Shown here piece by piece: positions 22,378-30,237 of a stretch of DNA of 32,000 nt. Location of the stretch: contig CAXXFI010000001.1 in assembly GCA_963665155.2 (NCBI GenBank), positions 760,558-792,557 of the forward strand. Direction: 5' to 3'. Source of the stretch: Dehalococcoidia bacterium. GTDB lineage: Bacteria > Chloroflexota > Dehalococcoidia > Lucifugimonadales > UBA3495. The notes under the pieces were generated by a model. That model saw only the letters and a list, made by a program, of their open reading frames with translations. It did no database searches and was not told the origin of the DNA. Position 1 is the stretch's first letter; each line of letters starts with the position of its first letter. Both the position numbers and the translations under genes were made by a program.

Positions 22378-23322
22378 ATGGACGAGCAGGCTAACGGTGA
22401 TGGCCGCCCCCCAATTCTTCGCCCGCGTAACCAGCACATTTGGCATAGGTTGCCCTCGGAACGCATAATAGCGGTTTTGCTGTTCCTGTGTGCTGGGATT
22501 TCGATTTTAACCACAATTGGAATCGTAGCCTTCCTGGTTTGGGAGGCAGCCCAATTTTTTGGCGCAGTAAATTTCCTGGACTTCATAACGGGGACCAAGT
22601 GGACCCCTCTTTTCTCATCGAAGCACTTCGGAGTCCTGGCGCTGGTGGCGGGCACGGTGCAAACAGCCATCGGCGCAATGATAGTAGCCCTCCCCTTGGG
22701 CCTGCTCAGCGCCGTTTTCATGAGCGAATACGCCCCGAACCGGATCCGCCGATTGGTCAAGCCAGTGTTGGAAGTGCTGGCCGGAATACCCACCATTGTT
22801 TACGGGTTCTTCGCTCTATTGTTCATTACCCCTTTGCTTCGAGACGTTTCCGGGGGCATTTCGGTTTTCAACGGACTGAGCGCCTCGATAGTCATGGGCA
22901 TCATGATTTTGCCAATGGTGTCGTCGTTGAGCGAAGACGCAATGCGCGCCGTGCCCCGGTCCCTGCGCGAGGGCGCCTATGCCTTGGGAGCCACCAAGCT
23001 GGAAGTAGCGACGAGAGTCGTTATTCCAGCCGCTCTATCGGGCATTGTGGCGTCTTTCATTCTGGCCATGTCCCGGGCGATTGGCGAGACGATGATCGTG
23101 ACCATCGCCGCTGGTCAGAACCCCAACTTTACGCTAAATCCACTGGTGCCCATCGAGACAATGACGGCGTTCATTGTTCAGGTCAGCCAAGGGGATTCGC
23201 CGACCGGGACTATAGAATTTAAGACCATCTTCGCGGTTGCCTTAACCTTGTTTGCTTTCACTTTGCTTATGAATCTGCTCAGTCAGTACCTTGTGGGGCG
23301 CTTTAGGGAGGTCTACGAGTAA
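22378..23322 (+). CDS. pstC: Phosphate ABC transporter permease PstC
   Basis: 314 aa, multi-TM. The EAA-like loop is [27 protein letters not shown]. Position in the pst operon supports the call. Confidence 0.88.
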
Positions 23323-24200
23323 TGGCGGTAATCGCTCCCACGGATTTCAAAAAGAGATTGGACCGCAGAAAGTGGGAAGGGCGGGCATTTTACGTCTTGT
23401 GTCTCCTGGCCATAATTGTGGCATTGGGAATGCTGGCCGTTTTGCTCATTTACATCGGAATGAAGGGCTGGTCTCACGTCAATTGGGGCTTCATCAGCAG
23501 TTTCCCATCGCGCCATCCCGACGAAGCGGGAATTAAGAGCGCACTTTTAGGCAGCGTATATCTGGTGATCATTGCCGGGCTAGTGTCGTTCGTGCTGGGT
23601 GTCGGCGCTGCCGTTTATCTGGAAGAGTACGCTGGCCGAAACCGATTTGCCCGGATAGCACAGATAAACATCGCGAATCTGGCAGGTGTGCCGTCCATCG
23701 TCTACGGCATTCTGGGACTGGAAATATTCGTACGCAGCATGCACCTTGGGAAGAGCCTGCTGGCTGGCGGATTTACCCTGGCGCTTCTGATCCTGCCCAT
23801 AATTATTATTGCGTCCCAGGAGGCGATACGGGCTGTTCCCCCGTCCATTCGAGAAGGCGGATATGCCCTGGGCGCTTCTCGTTGGCAGACGATCTGGCAT
23901 TTAGTGTTGCCCCAGGCTTTCTCAGGGATATTAACCGGGGTTATCCTCTCCATGAGCCGTGCCATTGGGGAGACCGCCCCTTTGATCGTAATCGGAGCGC
24001 TGACTTTCGTACCTTTCACCCCAGACGGGCCATTAAGCCGGTTTAGCGCGTTGCCGATACAAATATTCAACTGGACGTCCCGGCCCCAAGCGGGTTTTCA
24101 AGAGGCGGCCGCTGCTGGAATAATCGTATTGCTGATTTTGCTCCTGAGCATGAATGCGCTGGCTGTGCTGCTCCGCAGCAAACTGGAAATCCGGTCTTAA
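23322..24200 (+). CDS. pstA: Phosphate ABC transporter permease PstA
   Basis: 292 aa. The start overlaps the pstC stop (TAATG). Motif: QEAIRAVPPSIREGGYALGASRWQ....VLP.A..GI.TG. Confidence 0.88.
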   Translation: MAVIAPTDFKKRLDRRKWEGRAFYVLCLLAIIVALGMLAVLLIYIGMKGWSHVNWGFISSFPSRHPDEAGIKSALLGSVYLVIIAGLVSFVLGVGAAVYLEEYAGRNRFARIAQINIANLAGVPSIVYGILGLEIFVRSMHLGKSLLAGGFTLALLILPIIIIASQEAIRAVPPSIREGGYALGASRWQTIWHLVLPQAFSGILTGVILSMSRAIGETAPLIVIGALTFVPFTPDGPLSRFSALPIQIFNWTSRPQAGFQEAAAAGIIVLLILLLSMNALAVLLRSKLEIRS

Positions 24201-24209
24201 GGACGGGCA

Positions 24210-24983
24210 TTGGTGCAAGCTGACACTATCCTCCAGACCAAGAACTTGAGTGTCTATTACGGTACCAACCGGGTAGTTACCGAAGTCACTTTGGATGTTC
24301 TGCGGAACCGGATCACGGCTATTATCGGACCTTCCGGCACGGGGAAAAGCACTTTGCTCAGGTGCTTCAACCGGATGAACGACCTGATTCCCACCTTTCA
24401 CCTCTCCGGTGAAGTATTGTTTGAAGGGCGTGATCTCTACGCGCCGCATGTGGACCCCACCGAAATTCGGTACCAGATAGGTATGGTCTTCCAGAGGCCT
24501 AACCCATTCCCCAAGTCTATTTTCGACAATGTGGCCTTCGGCCCGAGAATCAACGGATATAATGGCAATCTGGCGGATTTGGTGGAAAAATCCCTGCAGC
24601 GTGCTGCTTTGTGGGATGAGGTGAAAGACCGGTTAAAGGGCAGCGCTCTGGCGCTGTCGGGTGGTCAGCAACAGCGGCTATGCATCGCCAGGACCCTGGC
24701 TATTGAACCGACCGTGATCTTGATGGACGAGCCTTGCTCTTCCTTGGACCCCATCGCCACATTGGCCATAGAAGAGTTGATGCGAGAGCTTTCCGAAGAC
24801 TATTCCATTGTGATAGTGACCCACAACATGCAACAGGCGGCCAGGGTTTCCAACTACACCGCTTTTCTAATGGCCGAAGCTGATAGGGTGGGCGTGCTCG
24901 TCGAGTTTGGCGAAAGTAGACAGATTTTTACCAATCCCCAAGACGAACGGACTGAAGCCTACATCACCGGCCGGTTTGGTTAG
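24210..24983 (+). CDS. pstB: Phosphate ABC transporter ATP-binding protein PstB
   Basis: 257 aa with a TTG or GTG start. Motifs: Walker [25 protein letters not shown], signature [13 protein letters not shown] and Walker [12 protein letters not shown]. Confidence 0.92.
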
Positions 24984-25801: not shown

Positions 25802-26623
25802 TCAGGCTTTTTGGAAATATTCTACCAGTGCTTGTATCAGGTTTCCCATATGGGGGTGGTCAGGCTCCACATCGACATGGATGCCCGCTTGCTTCATGCG
25901 CCGGGTGCAGACCGGTCCCACTGAAGCCACGGCCAGAGCTGGGCTTGCCAGACATTTCCGGAGTGAGCTTTCCTCGCCGGCTTCGGCTGCGATTTGTAAA
26001 AGATTGCCCACTTGGGGCTGGCTGGTAAACGCCAGAGCATCGATCTTGTTATCGGCCAGATCGTCTATGAGTTTAAGCACCGGACCCGTATCCTCTGGCA
26101 ACCCCCAGTTATAGACGGTAAATTCGCTTACCTGAGCGCCCAACTTGGTCAAGCCTTGGGTCAATATGTTGTTGGGGGCACCGTAGGCTTGCACTGCTAC
26201 CCGGCGGCCATCGAGGTCGAACTCCTTCACCGCAACGAGCAGTTCTTCCGAGGTGTAGGGTTCCGGAGGCATCAAGTCTATGTGGACCTTGTGCTGGCGT
26301 AGAATCCGGGCGGGCTTGGGACTACGAGCGAAGATGGTGCGCTGGTTCAAAGATGCGATGAACTCGTCCTGACGGCCCATTGAAGCTGCTGTTTCCACCA
26401 AGGCTTGGGTGCCCACGCCTGTAATGAGCACAACGACTTCGATGGTTCCTTGGCAAATGTCGTCGATGAGCTCGTGTAGCTCCGGGCTATCTTTCAAGTA
26501 AATTTCTTGGAGGACCGGCGCAGCGTAGGGAACCCCTCCGTGGCGCTCGATGAGAGAACCCATCTCCGAACGCATACGCGCTTCCACGTAGGCAATGACT
26601 TTTCCGTTTAATGACGCGGCCAT
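25802..26623 (-). CDS. hemD: Uroporphyrinogen-III synthase (HemD) family protein
   Basis: 273 aa. It has a two-lobed HemD-like pattern with ...VLITGVGT... and IDALAFTSQPQV. It lies downstream of sulfite reductase, a siroheme enzyme. Confidence 0.6.
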   Translation of the reverse strand: MAASLNGKVIAYVEARMRSEMGSLIERHGGVPYAAPVLQEIYLKDSPELHELIDDICQGTIEVVVLITGVGTQALVETAASMGRQDEFIASLNQRTIFARSPKPARILRQHKVHIDLMPPEPYTSEELLVAVKEFDLDGRRVAVQAYGAPNNILTQGLTKLGAQVSEFTVYNWGLPEDTGPVLKLIDDLADNKIDALAFTSQPQVGNLLQIAAEAGEESSLRKCLASPALAVASVGPVCTRRMKQAGIHVDVEPDHPHMGNLIQALVEYFQKA

Positions 26624-26811: not shown

Positions 26812-28656
26812 CTAGACCATGCACTCGCCCTCGCCGCGCTCCAGCTTGTAGATGTTGCTTCTTTCCCAGTCGAAGTACAGGTCCGACCCTGCCTCAGCTT
26901 CCCTGGCCTTACCTTGGGCTTCGGCAGCCACTGCAGTCAGTTCTTCCAGGCCTACCCGGTCAAGAAAGTCGTTGAAACCTTCGGTGTCCTTCCGGTTCTT
27001 GTTGAAATACGAGGTGATTTCCCGAACGATGGAAGGGACAGACTTGGCTGGTACCTTCACCAAGGGTATGCGAGTGCCAATCCGCGAATCTTCGATTCGA
27101 CTGGACCCATAGTTGCCGCCCAAGAACAACTCGTAGGCGGGTATTTGCTGGCCGTCGGGGCCTTTAACCGCAGCGCCGTGGAAGCCGATGTTGGCAATGT
27201 GGTGCTGGCCGCAACCGTTTGGGCAGCCGCTGATTTTGATGCGCATTTTTTGAACTTCAGGGTCCTCCAGGAGGCCGTTCCAAGACGCTATCTCATCAGA
27301 AATTGCCTTGGACAATCCCATTGAGGACGTGATACCCAACTTGCAGCTATCAGTTCCCGGGCAAGACCCCACGTCGCTAATCGTCTCGGCGCCAGCCGCC
27401 GCAAGGCCAATGTCTTGTAACGCATGCCATACATCGTGCAGGTACCCGTCGGGAACATACCGTAAGGTCAGATTCTGTTCCAGCGATGCAACTGCCCGCC
27501 CTCCTGTGTAGCGGCGGACTATCCCAGCTAGAGCCTTGAACTGGGCGGATGTAAGATCGCCCCTGGTAACGGAAATATAAACCAGGTTGTAACCTTGTTG
27601 CCTTTGGGCTACCACGTTGCTGTTGTGCCACTTTTGATAGCCATCTCCGCCATTGTGGCCGTTGCTGGTGACTGCCGGTGGTTGAGGCGGGGTTTCCCGT
27701 TGCAACTCTTCGGCTGCCATGTAGGGTTTAGGGTCGATTGGGCCTATGTTTTCCAACTCGGCATCGACCAGTTCCCGGAAAGCGTCAAGACCGATCCTGT
27801 CGATCAGGACCTTTACCCGGGCCATCATCCGGTTCTTCCGCAGCATTTCGGCGTTATTGAATACGGTCCAGAGGGCTAATGTCACCCTCAAGTAGTCCTC
27901 TTCCGCCACAAAATCGTAAAGTGGTTTGGCCAGCTTGGGCATGATTGACGTGCCACCCCCGACGTATACCTTAAAACCTTTCTTTTGAACCCCGCCTTCA
28001 TCGCGGATTTGGGCCACGAACGTCAAGTCTTGAATGGCTGCTGCTACATGGTCGTGACCGTCGCAACCGGTGAAGGCCGACTTCCATTTGCGGGGGAAGT
28101 TCTGGCTGATGGGATGGCGGACACCAAAGCGCACGTAGGCCGTAAGGTAGGGAGTGGGATTGAACACCTCCCCAGTGCATACTCCCGCTGTGGGGGAGCC
28201 AATCACGTTGCGGACCGTGTTGCCGCAAGCTTCCCTGGTGGTTAGGCCAACGCTTCCCAGCATTCGCAGGACTTCGGGACAGCGGTCCAAAGGGATGTGG
28301 TGGTACTGGATGTTCTCTCGGGTGGTGATGTGGCCTCTGTCCAAGGGCGCATATTCCTTGGCTATGTCACCCAAAACATCAAGGGCTTCAGGTGTTAGTA
28401 TGCCGCCTGGGATTTTTACTCGGATCATCTGGGCGTCTGGCTGACGCTGTCCGTAAACACCCTGGCGCAAGCGGAAGGGCGTGAATTCAGCGACTTCCCT
28501 TTCACCGGCCTGGAAAGCGGCAGCCTCCTCTTCCAAGCGCTCAATCTCGTATTCGATATGAGGAATAATCCCCAAAGATGACTTGGATAGTTCCAAGCTC
28601 TCTTGGTAGATATCCTCTTGGTTTTTTATGTTGGGGTTTTCGGTCCGAGTACTCAA
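26812..28656 (-). CDS. sir: Ferredoxin-type sulfite reductase (nitrite/sulfite reductase hemoprotein family)
   Basis: 614 aa with a TTG start 5 nt after aggagg. The siroheme/4Fe-4S ligand motifs are CPGTDSCKLGI and SGCPNGCGQHH. TTRENIQYH and CGNTVRNV are also present. Sulfite (rather than nitrite) specificity is inferred from size and the Cys-rich leader. Confidence 0.85.
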   Translation of the reverse strand: MSTRTENPNIKNQEDIYQESLELSKSSLGIIPHIEYEIERLEEEAAAFQAGEREVAEFTPFRLRQGVYGQRQPDAQMIRVKIPGGILTPEALDVLGDIAKEYAPLDRGHITTRENIQYHHIPLDRCPEVLRMLGSVGLTTREACGNTVRNVIGSPTAGVCTGEVFNPTPYLTAYVRFGVRHPISQNFPRKWKSAFTGCDGHDHVAAAIQDLTFVAQIRDEGGVQKKGFKVYVGGGTSIMPKLAKPLYDFVAEEDYLRVTLALWTVFNNAEMLRKNRMMARVKVLIDRIGLDAFRELVDAELENIGPIDPKPYMAAEELQRETPPQPPAVTSNGHNGGDGYQKWHNSNVVAQRQQGYNLVYISVTRGDLTSAQFKALAGIVRRYTGGRAVASLEQNLTLRYVPDGYLHDVWHALQDIGLAAAGAETISDVGSCPGTDSCKLGITSSMGLSKAISDEIASWNGLLEDPEVQKMRIKISGCPNGCGQHHIANIGFHGAAVKGPDGQQIPAYELFLGGNYGSSRIEDSRIGTRIPLVKVPAKSVPSIVREITSYFNKNRKDTEGFNDFLDRVGLEELTAVAAEAQGKAREAEAGSDLYFDWERSNIYKLERGEGECMV

Positions 28657-28676
28657 GGGGGCCTCCTAATATGTGG

Positions 28677-28714
28677 GCAAAATAAAAAACCCGCCACTAA
28701 CGATCTTGGCGGGT
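28677..28714 (-). terminator. Intrinsic terminator inside the sir leader (attenuator segments 3:4)
   Basis: Minus-strand RNA is CCCGCCA AGAUCGUUAG UGGCGGG UUUUUUAUUUUG. The U tract ends about 15-20 nt before the sir RBS. Confidence 0.75.
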
Positions 28715-28761
28715 GCAGGACTGGCTGAATCGGTGTCTAAAGCAAAATTCGTCGCCTGCGC

Positions 28762-28815
28762 CCTATGTAGGCGGACAACAACAACAGGTGCAACAGATTC
28801 CGTTCACTAGCTTCA
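28762..28815 (-). CDS. Candidate Cys-rich leader peptide (17 aa) of the sir attenuator
   Basis: ATG AAG CTA GTG AAC GGA ATC TGT TGC ACC TGT TGT TGT TGT CCG CCT ACA TAG = MKLVNGICCTCCCCPPT*. Confidence 0.6.
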
Positions 28816-28824
28816 TTAATTAGG

Positions 28825-28853
28825 GAGTCTATCCCATAGGAAAGAGGGTGTCA
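28825..28853 (-). promoter_or_regulatory. Sigma70-like promoter for the sir leader
   Basis: Minus strand has TTGACA (28853-28848), a 17-nt spacer and TAGACT (28830-25). The leader ATG lies 9 nt after the -10. Confidence 0.45.
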
Positions 28854-28912
28854 ACAGTTGCCGCTGCAACTGCAAATGGCCGGTGGCGGCTTTAGGAATC
28901 AGGTCCTCGGCG

Positions 28913-28941
28913 ATTGACACGAAATATCAGCCGCAATAGTA
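28913..28941 (+). promoter_or_regulatory. Sigma70-like promoter for the divergent FAD-oxidoreductase gene
   Basis: TTGACA (28913-28918), a 17-nt spacer and TAGTAT (28936-28941). Confidence 0.4.
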
Positions 28942-29070
28942 TTATTCATGCCTATCAAGCCTACGGTTTTATCGACTTCCTAAGCGAACAGGTAGATATA
29001 CCGGTGGATGAATTGGTAATGCGGCAACTCGACCATATTGGGTTCTGCCGAACATCAAGGACAACAAGAC

Positions 29071-30237
29071 ATGAAACGATCAGCCGACGTAGTGATAATT
29101 GGCGGCGGGGTAATCGGTTGCAGTCTCCTTTACAACCTGGCAGATATGGGCATGGCCGACTCCCTGCTATTGGAAATGGATGTATTGGCCTCCGGTTCTA
29201 CGGGAAGGTCTCAAGCAATCTGCCGGATGCATTACTCCAACCCGGTCACCGCCTCAATGGCCTGGGAGAGCGTTAAAATTTTCGCCAACTTCGGAGATGC
29301 GGTTGGCGGCGCATCGGGTTTCGTCAAAACCGGCTATTTGGTGGTAGTGGAAGGCATCGAACGCGCGGGTCTGGAAAAGAACGTGGCTATGCAGCAAGAC
29401 CTGAACATTAGCACCAGCCAGGTTTCGGCTGCGGATTTACGGGAATTGGCCCCCATGGTAGCGGTGGATGAAACGGAGGTTTTGGCCTGGGAGCCGGAAT
29501 CGGGATACGCCGACCCCTACTTGGTCACAACCTCCTACGCTTCCAAGGCCAGAGACTTAGGGGCGGAGGTGGCCCAGAGAACACCGGTCTTGGGGATTGA
29601 AGTGTCCGGGGACCGGGTGCGCGCCGTGTTGACCCCGGAAGGCCGGGTGGAAACCAACACGGTGGTTGTGGCCGCGGGCCCGTGGTCCAAAATGGAAATG
29701 GCCAAGATTGGCGTGGACTTGCCGCTGATTCCGGTGCGTCATCAAGTCGCCTCTTTGATCCGGCCTGTGGACCAAGTGCCGGAGCATCCTACAGTCGGGG
29801 ACATTGCCCAGTCCTTCTCGTTCAGGCCCGATGGCTCGTCCATGACGTTAATGGGCTTCGGCGAAGATGAGGAAGTAGACCTGAACACCTACAATCAGGG
29901 CGTCGACATGAGCGCAGTCGCCGAATCCATGAGCAAATTGGCCCGGCGAATTCCGGCCATGGCCGATTGCTACTTCCGGGGCGGTTGGTCCGGCCTGTTC
30001 ACGACAACTCCCGATTGGCATCCGATCTTGGGCCGAGTGCCTGGAATTGAGGGTCTGTACTGTGCCGTAGGGTTTAGCGGTCACGGGTTCAAGCTATCTC
30101 CATTGATCGGCAAGACAATGGCGGAACTGATCCTCCACAGCCAGGCCAGTTCGGTGGATATTTCCCCGCTCCGCTATACGCGCTTCGCCGAGGGAGACTT
30201 GATCAACTCCAGCTACCGTTACCGGGTGTTGGCCTGA
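29071..30237 (+). CDS. FAD-dependent oxidoreductase (DAO family: sarcosine oxidase beta / glycine or D-amino-acid oxidase-like)
   Basis: ATG 29071; the ORF track starts at TTG 29038. The dinucleotide fold is DVVIIGGGVIGCS. Also VVVAAGPWS, and GFSGHGFKLSP near the C-terminus. Confidence 0.8.
   Translation: MKRSADVVIIGGGVIGCSLLYNLADMGMADSLLLEMDVLASGSTGRSQAICRMHYSNPVTASMAWESVKIFANFGDAVGGASGFVKTGYLVVVEGIERAGLEKNVAMQQDLNISTSQVSAADLRELAPMVAVDETEVLAWEPESGYADPYLVTTSYASKARDLGAEVAQRTPVLGIEVSGDRVRAVLTPEGRVETNTVVVAAGPWSKMEMAKIGVDLPLIPVRHQVASLIRPVDQVPEHPTVGDIAQSFSFRPDGSSMTLMGFGEDEEVDLNTYNQGVDMSAVAESMSKLARRIPAMADCYFRGGWSGLFTTTPDWHPILGRVPGIEGLYCAVGFSGHGFKLSPLIGKTMAELILHSQASSVDISPLRYTRFAEGDLINSSYRYRVLA

Follow-up and report, generated by a model that had tools for sequence, protein, structure and literature searches.

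A candidate cysteine-responsive transcription attenuator with a near-leaderless upstream reading frame ahead of the sulfite reductase gene of SAR202 Chloroflexota

The stretch of DNA analysed here, referred to as the window, comprises 32,000 nucleotides (nt) from a Dehalococcoidia bacterium of the phylum Chloroflexota (GenBank assembly GCA_963665155.2, contig CAXXFI010000001.1, positions 760,558 to 792,557 of the forward strand). Its minus strand carries sir, which encodes a siroheme sulfite/nitrite reductase, and, directly after it, a HemD-type uroporphyrinogen-III synthase gene, which is probably the second gene of the same operon. The leader of sir contains a near-consensus promoter, a short upstream open reading frame (uORF) rich in Cys codons, and an intrinsic terminator, and in all likelihood constitutes a cysteine-responsive, ribosome-mediated transcription attenuator. 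The evidence comprises the anatomy of the leader, its conservation, the covariation and mutual exclusivity of its helices, three states reproduced in silico, and its occurrence ahead of two different operons, all of which was obtained computationally. The leader, sir, and the HemD-type gene all lie on the minus strand, with the features at the following exact window positions:

28849-28854, minus strand: -35 hexamer TTGACA, read from the sequence, with a 17-nt spacer to the -10 hexamer
28826-28831, minus strand: -10 hexamer TAGACT, read from the sequence
28763-28816, minus strand: uORF of 17 codons plus UAG, encoding MKLVNGICCTCCCCPPT, with ATG at 28816 and TAG at 28765-28763
28769-28779, minus strand: segment 1 (seg1), 5' arm of helix P1, GUUGUCCGCCU, overlapping the last Cys codons and the Pro-Pro codons
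28751-28763, minus strand: segment 2 (seg2), GGGCGCAGGCGAC (= GGGCGCAGG(CGAC)), 3' arm of P1 and 5' arm of the antiterminator
28711-28719, minus strand: segment 3 (seg3), CCUGCACCC, 3' arm of the antiterminator, overlapping the bottom of the terminator 5' arm
28679-28714, minus strand: intrinsic terminator, arms ACCCGCCA (28714-28707) and UGGCGGGU (28696-28689), 8-bp stem and 10-nt loop
28679-28689, minus strand: U-tract of the terminator, U6AU4, ending 12 nt ahead of the sir Shine-Dalgarno (SD) sequence
28662-28667, minus strand: sir SD sequence AGGAGG, 12 nt past the U-tract
26812-28656, minus strand: sir, siroheme sulfite/nitrite reductase of NirA/SirA type, 614 aa, TTG start at 28656, Pfam NIR_SIR and NIR_SIR_ferr
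25802-26623, minus strand: HemD-type uroporphyrinogen-III synthase (siroheme precursor pathway), Pfam HEM4 and an NCBIfam match, same strand, directly after sir

Direct reading of the minus strand recovers each of the sequence features described in an initial annotation of this DNA, with the coordinates given there found to be uniformly one base low (the uORF, for example, spans 28816-28763 rather than 28815-28762, and the -35 hexamer begins at 28854). The codons of the uORF read ATG AAG CTA GTG AAC GGA ATC TGT TGC ACC TGT TGT TGT TGT CCG CCT ACA TAG, with six of the 17 encoding Cys, arranged as a pair (CC, 28795-28790) and a run of four (CCCC, 28786-28775). The start codon lies 9 nt beyond the -10 box, the A of the AUG being the tenth base, and seg2 begins with the G of the UAG stop codon. 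Five of the six Cys codons are UGU, compared with 5 UGU and 16 UGC in six neighbouring genes (a small sample), and this excess may reflect a preference for a codon read by wobble, or a constraint imposed by pairing in P1 or upstream. The uORF is unannotated, with public gene calls for the source contig (ENA ERZ28669045 contig_12, designated L201; the leader region is L201:9587-10000, window ~28657-29070) empty between the DAO-family gene on the far side of the leader and sir.

The helix between seg1 and seg2 is longer than initially drawn, with ViennaRNA giving 11 bp, a 2-nt bulge, and -14.9 kcal/mol for arms 28779-28769 and 28763-28751. The antiterminator duplex of seg2 and seg3 has an energy of -16.5 kcal/mol, with 28763-28761 paired with 28711-28713 and 28759-28755 paired with 28715-28719 around a C-A mismatch, and its formation leaves just four base pairs of the terminator free. 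The minimum free energy (MFE) structure predicted by RNAfold includes the terminator hairpin (-14.4 kcal/mol), with the MFE of the whole leader being -49.3 kcal/mol (z = -1.8). The hairpin was not called by a simple terminator scanner because its loop of 10 nt exceeds the scanner maximum of 8.

To place the element among its relatives, sir was sought in one genome per species, yielding 80 loci with Sir proteins of 61-87% identity, all from SAR202/Dehalococcoidia (Chloroflexota) metagenome-assembled genomes; a separate protein search for distant Sir homologues listed relatives of at least 67% identity only. A covariance model built from 67 leaders, whose structure comprises the P1 core and the terminator only, detects a single copy in the 32-kb window (28680-28791, 73.7 bits, E ~2e-15) and, at 78 of the 80 loci, again one copy ahead of sir, with no second copy in any flank, an arrangement far beyond chance. 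E-values fall below 1e-7 in 77 loci, with locus L005 at ~1e-5 and locus L002 at only 0.05. The leaders missed or poorly scored by the model (L002, L005, L076, and L078) retain the promoter and a uORF of MRLEDDLFxLC type, L076 and L078 being without a recognisable terminator. The promoter and a uORF of leaderless type are retained in all 80 sir loci, as are Cys-rich homologues of the uORF, and so the loss of the uORF or its Cys codons from orthologous leaders, which the initial annotation had named as an outcome that would speak against an attenuator, is not the case. A short open reading frame with at least three Cys codons is found in ~70 of the 80 upstream regions, and a hairpin with a U-tract in ~68. 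Rfam contains nothing that reaches the gathering score across the whole window, and the sole match at E<=10 within 28000-29500 is spurious, being to the DUF2693 RNA on the opposite strand.

The uORF peptides fall into subfamilies, namely those ending in CCTCPPT, in CICTCTCPP(K/T)(S/A)GAG, or in CCTCTCYIGIR, and those of the form MRxEDDLFxLC. Many SAR202 leaders carry alternating C-x-C-x-C residues rather than consecutive Cys codons, with ten containing just 1-3 Cys codons. In the YIGIR clade (L020-L027, L031, L039, L042, L046, L051, and L068; alignment A3, columns 17-41), the loss of 5 nt takes out the Pro-Pro codons and places the former UAG out of frame, such that the peptide ends in CYIGIR, with both in-frame Cys codons and the RNA motif ACAUAGGG retained, and with seg2 and seg3 altered together (GGGAUCAGG with CCUUGA(A/G)CCC). 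The preservation of both the Cys frame and ACAUAGGG through this deletion indicates that selection on the Cys codons and selection on the RNA helices are separate. The Pro-Pro codons were also considered as an essential stalling motif and ruled out, as this clade lacks them and their positions are those of the P1 arm.

The promoter is equally well preserved, with the -35 hexamer TTGACA matching consensus at 6/6 positions in 67 of 77 leaders, a spacer of 17 nt in 74 of the 77 and 18 nt in the other three, and a TANNNT -10 box in all 77. Such a near-consensus promoter throughout the family would suit constitutive initiation followed by control at a later step. The distance from the -10 box to the start of the uORF is 4-9 nt in every one of the 77 leaders and 6-9 nt in 75, being 8 nt in 45 leaders, 6 nt in 14 (all with GTG starts), 7 nt in seven, 9 nt in nine (the window included), and 4 nt in two. 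An SD sequence cannot fit ahead of the uORF, and any translation of the uORF must therefore start in a leaderless or near-leaderless manner; this spacing supports the near-leaderless start suggested by the initial annotation. From the promoter geometry, the uORF is predicted to begin at the transcription start site (TSS), as the first cistron of a cysteine-related operon.

Cys accounts for 20% of residues over 70 distinct uORF peptides, compared with 1.5% in Sir, encoded family-wide by 187 TGT and 111 TGC codons. Signs of translation are clearest in the MRxEDDLF clade (L002, L004, L005, L006, L007, L059, L071, L076, L077, and L078), where the uORF, MR(L/F/M)EDDLF(H/R/Y/C)LC..., lies ~100-165 nt upstream of sir (at ~2501). 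Codons differing by a single nucleotide show 64 synonymous and 26 non-synonymous changes in this clade, with Arg encoded by five codons, and with Leu, Phe, His, Asp, and Glu also varying synonymously. Judged indirectly, by these substitution patterns, translation of the uORF is well supported in the MRxEDDLF clade, and plausible elsewhere.

Covariation is strong for the terminator and P1, and moderate for the antiterminator. In the covariance-model alignment, 97.5% of cells in the terminator stem pair, compared with 33-55% in slid controls, and compensatory changes occur in six of the eight pairs (one pair, for instance, being G-C in 38 sequences and A-U in 35, and another G-C in 31 and A-U in 28), a level that none of 500 shuffles attained. 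As the registers of P1 and the antiterminator differ between subgroups, an alignment-free test was chosen, in which the duplex energies of cognate and non-cognate segments, cut by pairing-independent anchors from 67 unique leaders, were compared. Cognate segments are favoured in P1 (z = -5.8, 0/2000 permutations), in the antiterminator (z = -3.2, 3/2000 permutations), and in the terminator (z = -11.2). When each of 22 clusters, formed at 70% leader identity, contributes one random representative, the same test gives p ~0 for P1 and the terminator, and a median p of 0.028 for the antiterminator.

For the antiterminator, pairs were also counted on a MAFFT pseudo-alignment of seg2, spacer, and seg3 from 46 main-type leaders, constructed without consulting the pairing. 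In this alignment 92.2% of cells pair, compared with 87.5+-0.8% in shuffled (0/500) and 23-51% in slid controls, with a covariation score of 0.172 compared with 0.127 in shuffles (0/500), and with one pair changing from G-C to U-A in six sequences. The GTG-start subgroup was excluded from this formal count, as its antiterminator forms in another register, with GGUGGGUG pairing directly with the terminator arm, and a column-wise count on the MAFFT and covariance-model alignments (A1 and A3) was dropped, as the placement of gaps in seg2 and seg3 varied by subgroup. Over all 77 leaders the antiterminator has a mean energy of -15.3 kcal/mol and takes the 3-6 5'-most bases of the terminator 5' arm, that is, the base of the stem by the U-tract, whilst P1 and the antiterminator overlap by 4-10 nt of seg2 in all 77. 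The helices whose covariation the initial annotation had put forward for checking are thus supported, strongly for the terminator and P1, and moderately for the antiterminator.

Taken as an attenuator, the leader would operate through three mutually exclusive helices, seg1:seg2 (P1), seg2:seg3 (the antiterminator), and seg3:seg4 (the terminator). A strong, probably constitutive promoter would start the mRNA at, or a few nt from, the AUG of the uORF, which would be translated in leaderless fashion. With Cys-tRNA(Cys) plentiful, the ribosome would reach the UAG and, because the G of this codon is the first base of seg2, would mask seg2 as it terminates, allowing the terminator to form and transcription to stop 12 nt ahead of the sir ribosome binding site. 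Without a ribosome, P1 would hold seg2, and the terminator would again form. With Cys-tRNA(Cys) scarce, the ribosome would stall on the Cys codons at 28795-28775 and cover seg1, leaving seg2 free to pair with newly transcribed seg3 and to occupy the base of the terminator by the U-tract, with RNA polymerase then continuing into sir and probably hemD. Within this scheme, we infer the position of the TSS, the translation of the uORF in the window's clade, the act of termination, and the response to cysteine.

The geometry of the leaders is consistent with this scheme. In 45 of the 77 leaders seg2 opens with the final base of the stop codon, and the stop lies 11-12 nt farther downstream in nearly all of the remainder, and 27 nt downstream in L075; with the stop at the edge of seg2 or beyond, a terminating ribosome always covers seg2. 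The start of the U-tract lies a median of 23 nt (range 17-56) from the sir SD, leaving no space for a promoter of its own, and a separate sir promoter downstream of the terminator is ruled out on these grounds, such that sir relies on read-through.

The states expected of such a switch were modelled by partition-function folding of 77 transcripts ending just before seg4, with the ribosome represented by a mask from the 5' end, and with the probability of seg2 capturing the bottom CCC of the terminator arm as the readout. With no ribosome this probability has a mean of 0.16 and a median of 0.03 (0.0 in the window), rising to a mean of 0.86 and a median of 0.99 (window 1.0) for a ribosome at the last Cys codon, and to a mean of 0.70 and a median of 0.86 (window 1.0) for a ribosome at the third-from-last Cys codon. 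A ribosome positioned on the stop codon lowers it to a mean of 0.01 and a median of 0.00 (window 0.0). The three-state ribosome logic set out in the initial annotation is therefore reproduced in the constrained folds of 77 leaders.

A second operon bears the same leader. Scanning of metagenomes with a 14-base leader core, TGTCCNCCNACATAGG, gave at least 120 matching stretches, mostly arising by chance, and filtering with the covariance model retained five of the 80 metagenome loci examined as leaders, none of which precedes sir. These leaders, designated class 2, lie at the following positions, the first five having passed the model filter and the last two entries giving their location in long contigs:

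L090:3861-3970, minus strand: class-2 leader
L122:904-1013, minus strand: class-2 leader
L131:828-940, plus strand: class-2 leader
L149:278-388, minus strand: class-2 leader
L154:1706-1815, plus strand: class-2 leader
L202-L204:5790-5899: class-2 leaders in long contigs
L205-L206:5800-5911: class-2 leaders in long contigs

Four of the five metagenome leaders precede a gene for a 281-aa adenylyltransferase of the ThiF/MoeB/MoeZ family, with the contig of L149 ending before any downstream gene, and a 316-aa cysteine synthase (TIGR01136 cysKM, 359.8 bits, cutoff 344) follows the adenylyltransferase wherever the contig is long enough. An Rrf2-family regulator gene and a thioesterase gene lie upstream and nusA-infB downstream, with the five long contigs confirming the leader within the gap between the Rrf2 and ThiF genes. 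The adenylyltransferase is annotated at source as belonging to SAR202 cluster bacteria, with single sequences occurring on 100-260 contigs, as for abundant marine organisms. Class-2 leaders share the same promoter, with a gap of 10 nt to the start codon, and the same P1 around ACAUAG, their uORFs including MITNFSELTCACTCPPT and MLTAKYQLTCHCTCPPT, and possess a longer terminator with a CCUGCGC box as its base; a quick switch metric calculated for them was noisy and is not relied on. The pairing of ThiF/MoeZ with CysK/M resembles the sulfur-carrier (CysO/MoeZ/CysM) route to cysteine of mycobacteria.

The occurrence of one leader family before two distinct cysteine-pathway operons provides strong functional support for the sensing of cysteine, and suggests, from gene content, that the leader marks a small cysteine regulon comprising sir-hemD and ThiF/MoeZ-CysK/M. 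The initial annotation had argued that the enzyme controlled by the sir leader supplies sulfide for cysteine synthesis, and the same leader also heads a cysteine synthase operon. A Cys-codon attenuator of the trpL/hisL type, as originally proposed, is thus supported by the conservation of the uORF, by covariation, by the folds, and by the second operon.

Several observations weigh against an attenuator of this kind. Full-length equilibrium folds favour P1 and the terminator even with seg1 masked, and plain MFE folding with simple 5' truncation gives P1 and the terminator in every state, such that the switch must be kinetic. The comparison of folded states suggested by the initial annotation accordingly divides, with plain MFE folding failing to favour the seg2:seg3 state, and constrained folds yielding all three states. 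Kinetic switching is assumed here rather than demonstrated, with the competition between helices modelled crudely and the ribosome mask assuming that 12 nt are protected past the first base of the A-site codon. The trp leader behaves likewise, with equilibrium preferring the terminator state and the outcome decided kinetically. The support for the antiterminator is modest, with double changes in three pairs only and a central mismatch always present, and the helix mostly sequesters only the three bottom C residues of the terminator arm. Regarding translation, the excess of variability at third codon positions over all subgroups is marginal (55 sites compared with 39 and 36 at the other positions, p=0.09), the position of the AUG in the window makes a 5' untranslated region of 1-4 nt as likely as a leaderless start, and leaderless translation in SAR202 is itself an assumption, with the TSS a prediction.

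Furthermore, a pure counter of Cys codons falls short of accounting for the ten leaders with 1-3 Cys codons, in which a non-Cys peptide is conserved. In the MRxEDDLF clade, or perhaps the whole family, the nascent peptide might arrest or sensitise the ribosome beyond any counting of codons, which we regard as improbable; by analogy with TnaC and tryptophan, such a peptide could make one Cys codon enough, or could sense free cysteine or a thiol.

Improbable, too, is translational attenuation of the mycobacterial kind, in which the uORF would sense Cys-tRNA and the output would be unmasking of the sir SD, instead of or besides antitermination. Whilst no mechanism other than SD unmasking has been proven by experiment for Cys-rich leaderless small open reading frames (sORFs) (10.1101/834739), in 78 of the 80 loci a hairpin and U-tract separate the uORF from the SD and show the strongest covariation of the element, the Cys tract pairs with seg2 and not with the SD region, and no conserved helix involving the SD was found in the leader folds and alignment. 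The accessibility of the SD is ambiguous in this respect, the unpaired probability of the sir SD core having a mean of ~0.41 in full-length folds and falling below 0.3 in 23% of leaders.

The uORF may alternatively encode a functional Cys-rich micropeptide (metal- or thiol-binding, or resembling the ribosomally synthesised and post-translationally modified peptides) that carries its own terminator, its placement ahead of sir being merely operonic. This is consistent with the conserved non-Cys motifs CxCxCPPT and MRxEDDLFxLC and with purifying selection in one clade, and an independent peptide function was also left possible by the authors of the mycobacterial work (10.1101/834739). The CPPT codons, however, form the P1 arm, with the 5-nt-deletion clade losing PPT and keeping ACAUAGGG and the in-frame Cys codons. 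Additionally, sir is without space for its own promoter, neither the conserved antiterminator nor the siting of the stop codon by the edge of seg2 would serve any purpose, and the same leader heads two different cysteine-biosynthesis operons, rendering such a peptide a very improbable explanation.

Equally slight is the chance that the leader is a riboswitch-like terminator/antiterminator RNA controlled by a ligand or protein, the reading frame being incidental, since the motifs ACAUAGGG and CCUGCGCCC that are conserved even across the frame shift are fully explained as helix arms, there is no Rfam match even at E<=10, and the start codon locked to the promoter in 77 of 77 leaders, the Cys frame kept through indels, and the coding-type substitutions in one clade are not expected of an untranslated leader, although an Rrf2-family regulator gene does adjoin the class-2 leader (Rrf2 proteins being DNA-binding regulators). 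Each of these alternatives fails to account at once for the covariation of terminator and antiterminator, a stop codon set right at the edge of seg2, a start codon locked to the promoter, and the presence of the leader before two cysteine operons, and we therefore retain the transcription attenuator as the preferred reading.

Leader-peptide attenuation is a textbook mechanism. As in trpL, hisL, leuL, thrL, ilvL, and pheL of E. coli and Salmonella, the SAR202 leader carries a short uORF rich in codons for the end product, together with 1:2, 2:3, and 3:4 helices of which the last is an intrinsic terminator, with termination expected as the default of an untranslated leader, seg2 expected to be freed by a ribosome stalled at the regulatory codons, and seg2 masked by one at the stop. 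The regulatory codons, the intrinsic terminator, the excluding antiterminator, and the stall/stop geometry of this class (the latter with an assumed 12-nt footprint) are all present. Unlike the E. coli and Salmonella leaders, the SAR202 element would sense cysteine, has a uORF without an SD near the predicted TSS, and resides in Chloroflexota rather than Proteobacteria. The S-box (S-adenosylmethionine) riboswitches and the T-box leaders of Firmicutes sulfur and amino-acid genes also exert terminator/antiterminator control, acting on genes of the methionine/cysteine pathway or related to aminoacyl-tRNA, with T-boxes likewise reading tRNA charging; in contrast to the SAR202 leader, these sense a metabolite or an uncharged tRNA directly by RNA, with no translated uORF.

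Full-text literature searches returned nothing that concerns Chloroflexi or SAR202, nor any terminator-based Cys leader, and we know of no terminator-based attenuator for cysteine. The initial annotation was unsure whether a Cys-codon version had been characterised; a precedent does exist in the leaderless polycysteine sORFs of mycobacteria, with the qualification that its mechanism, at the one locus dissected, is translational (10.1101/834739). These sORFs, the 'Cys ribulon' of Canestrari et al. (2020, Mol Microbiol 114:93), are cysteine-responsive, with the poly-Cys tract of Ms5788A pairing with and hiding the downstream SD, and with transcription past the leader unaffected (10.1101/834739). 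To the knowledge of Canestrari et al., uORF attenuation for cysteine had not been described earlier, and the mechanism at other loci was left open (10.1101/834739). A 2026 study of M. tuberculosis still cites cysteine control as translational attenuation.

The SAR202 uORFs resemble these sORFs in being leaderless (here by prediction), in having Cys codons near the C-terminus, in forming the first cistron of several cysteine operons, in having been missed by gene callers, and in the partial conservation of their non-Cys residues. The Sir of SAR202 is of NirA/SirA type, as in mycobacteria, and the two or more consecutive Cys codons near the C-terminus by which the mycobacterial sORFs are recognised are found in the window (CC and CCCC). 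The sequestration of an SD by the Cys tract, in contrast, is absent from the SAR202 leader, which unlike Ms5788A possesses a covarying terminator and antiterminator between the uORF and the SD, and belongs to another phylum. Cys leader peptides with Cys runs near the stop codon were also predicted upstream of cys and cbs operons in Actinobacteria by Seliverstov et al. 2005 (PMC1262725), who described these leaders as 'without obvious terminators' and suggested Rho-dependent termination. The SAR202 element differs in having all the components of a classical attenuator.

As far as the literature shows, then, the mechanism is classical and the signal precedented, with the apparent novelty lying in their combination with a leaderless uORF in Chloroflexota, a phylum from which leader-peptide attenuation is not known to have been reported. 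If correct, this would be the first classical terminator/antiterminator attenuator for cysteine, and would extend attenuation to Chloroflexota, where SAR202 are among the most abundant, and still uncultured, deep-ocean bacteria. A leaderless uORF would also prompt the question of how ribosome and polymerase keep in step where no SD is present. In SAR202 genomes, the covariance model picks out operons probably regulated by cysteine (sir-hemD and ThiF/MoeZ-CysK/M), and the leader is a candidate compact, protein-free cysteine sensor for synthetic biology.

The product of sir finds its best NCBIfam match in the NirA family, with the closest solved structure being that of M. tuberculosis NirA (1ZJ8), which we take to be actually a sulfite reductase. 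The leader supports naming this ambiguous NirA-family enzyme a sulfite reductase.

Among the neighbouring genes, an ATP-binding cassette (ABC) transporter cluster lies just past sir-hemD (window 23322-24983, plus strand; L201:13674-17623), comprising PBP_like_2, two BPD_transp_1 permeases (one with DUF3333), and an ATPase. This cluster resembles a phosphate (Pst-type) rather than a sulfate transporter, and probably falls outside the cysteine regulon. A gene for a SelB-type selenocysteine elongation factor lies ~5-7 kb past the high-coordinate end of the window (L201:2912-4777), and we know of no connection between it and the sir leader. A second promoter-like site, TTGACA-17-TAGTAT (10/12 match), is found at window 28914-28942 on the plus strand, ~60 nt from the leader promoter and facing away from it, and precedes the gene for a DAO-family FAD oxidoreductase (window 29038-30237, plus strand). 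With this divergent site so close by, the sir leader shares a compact divergent promoter region.

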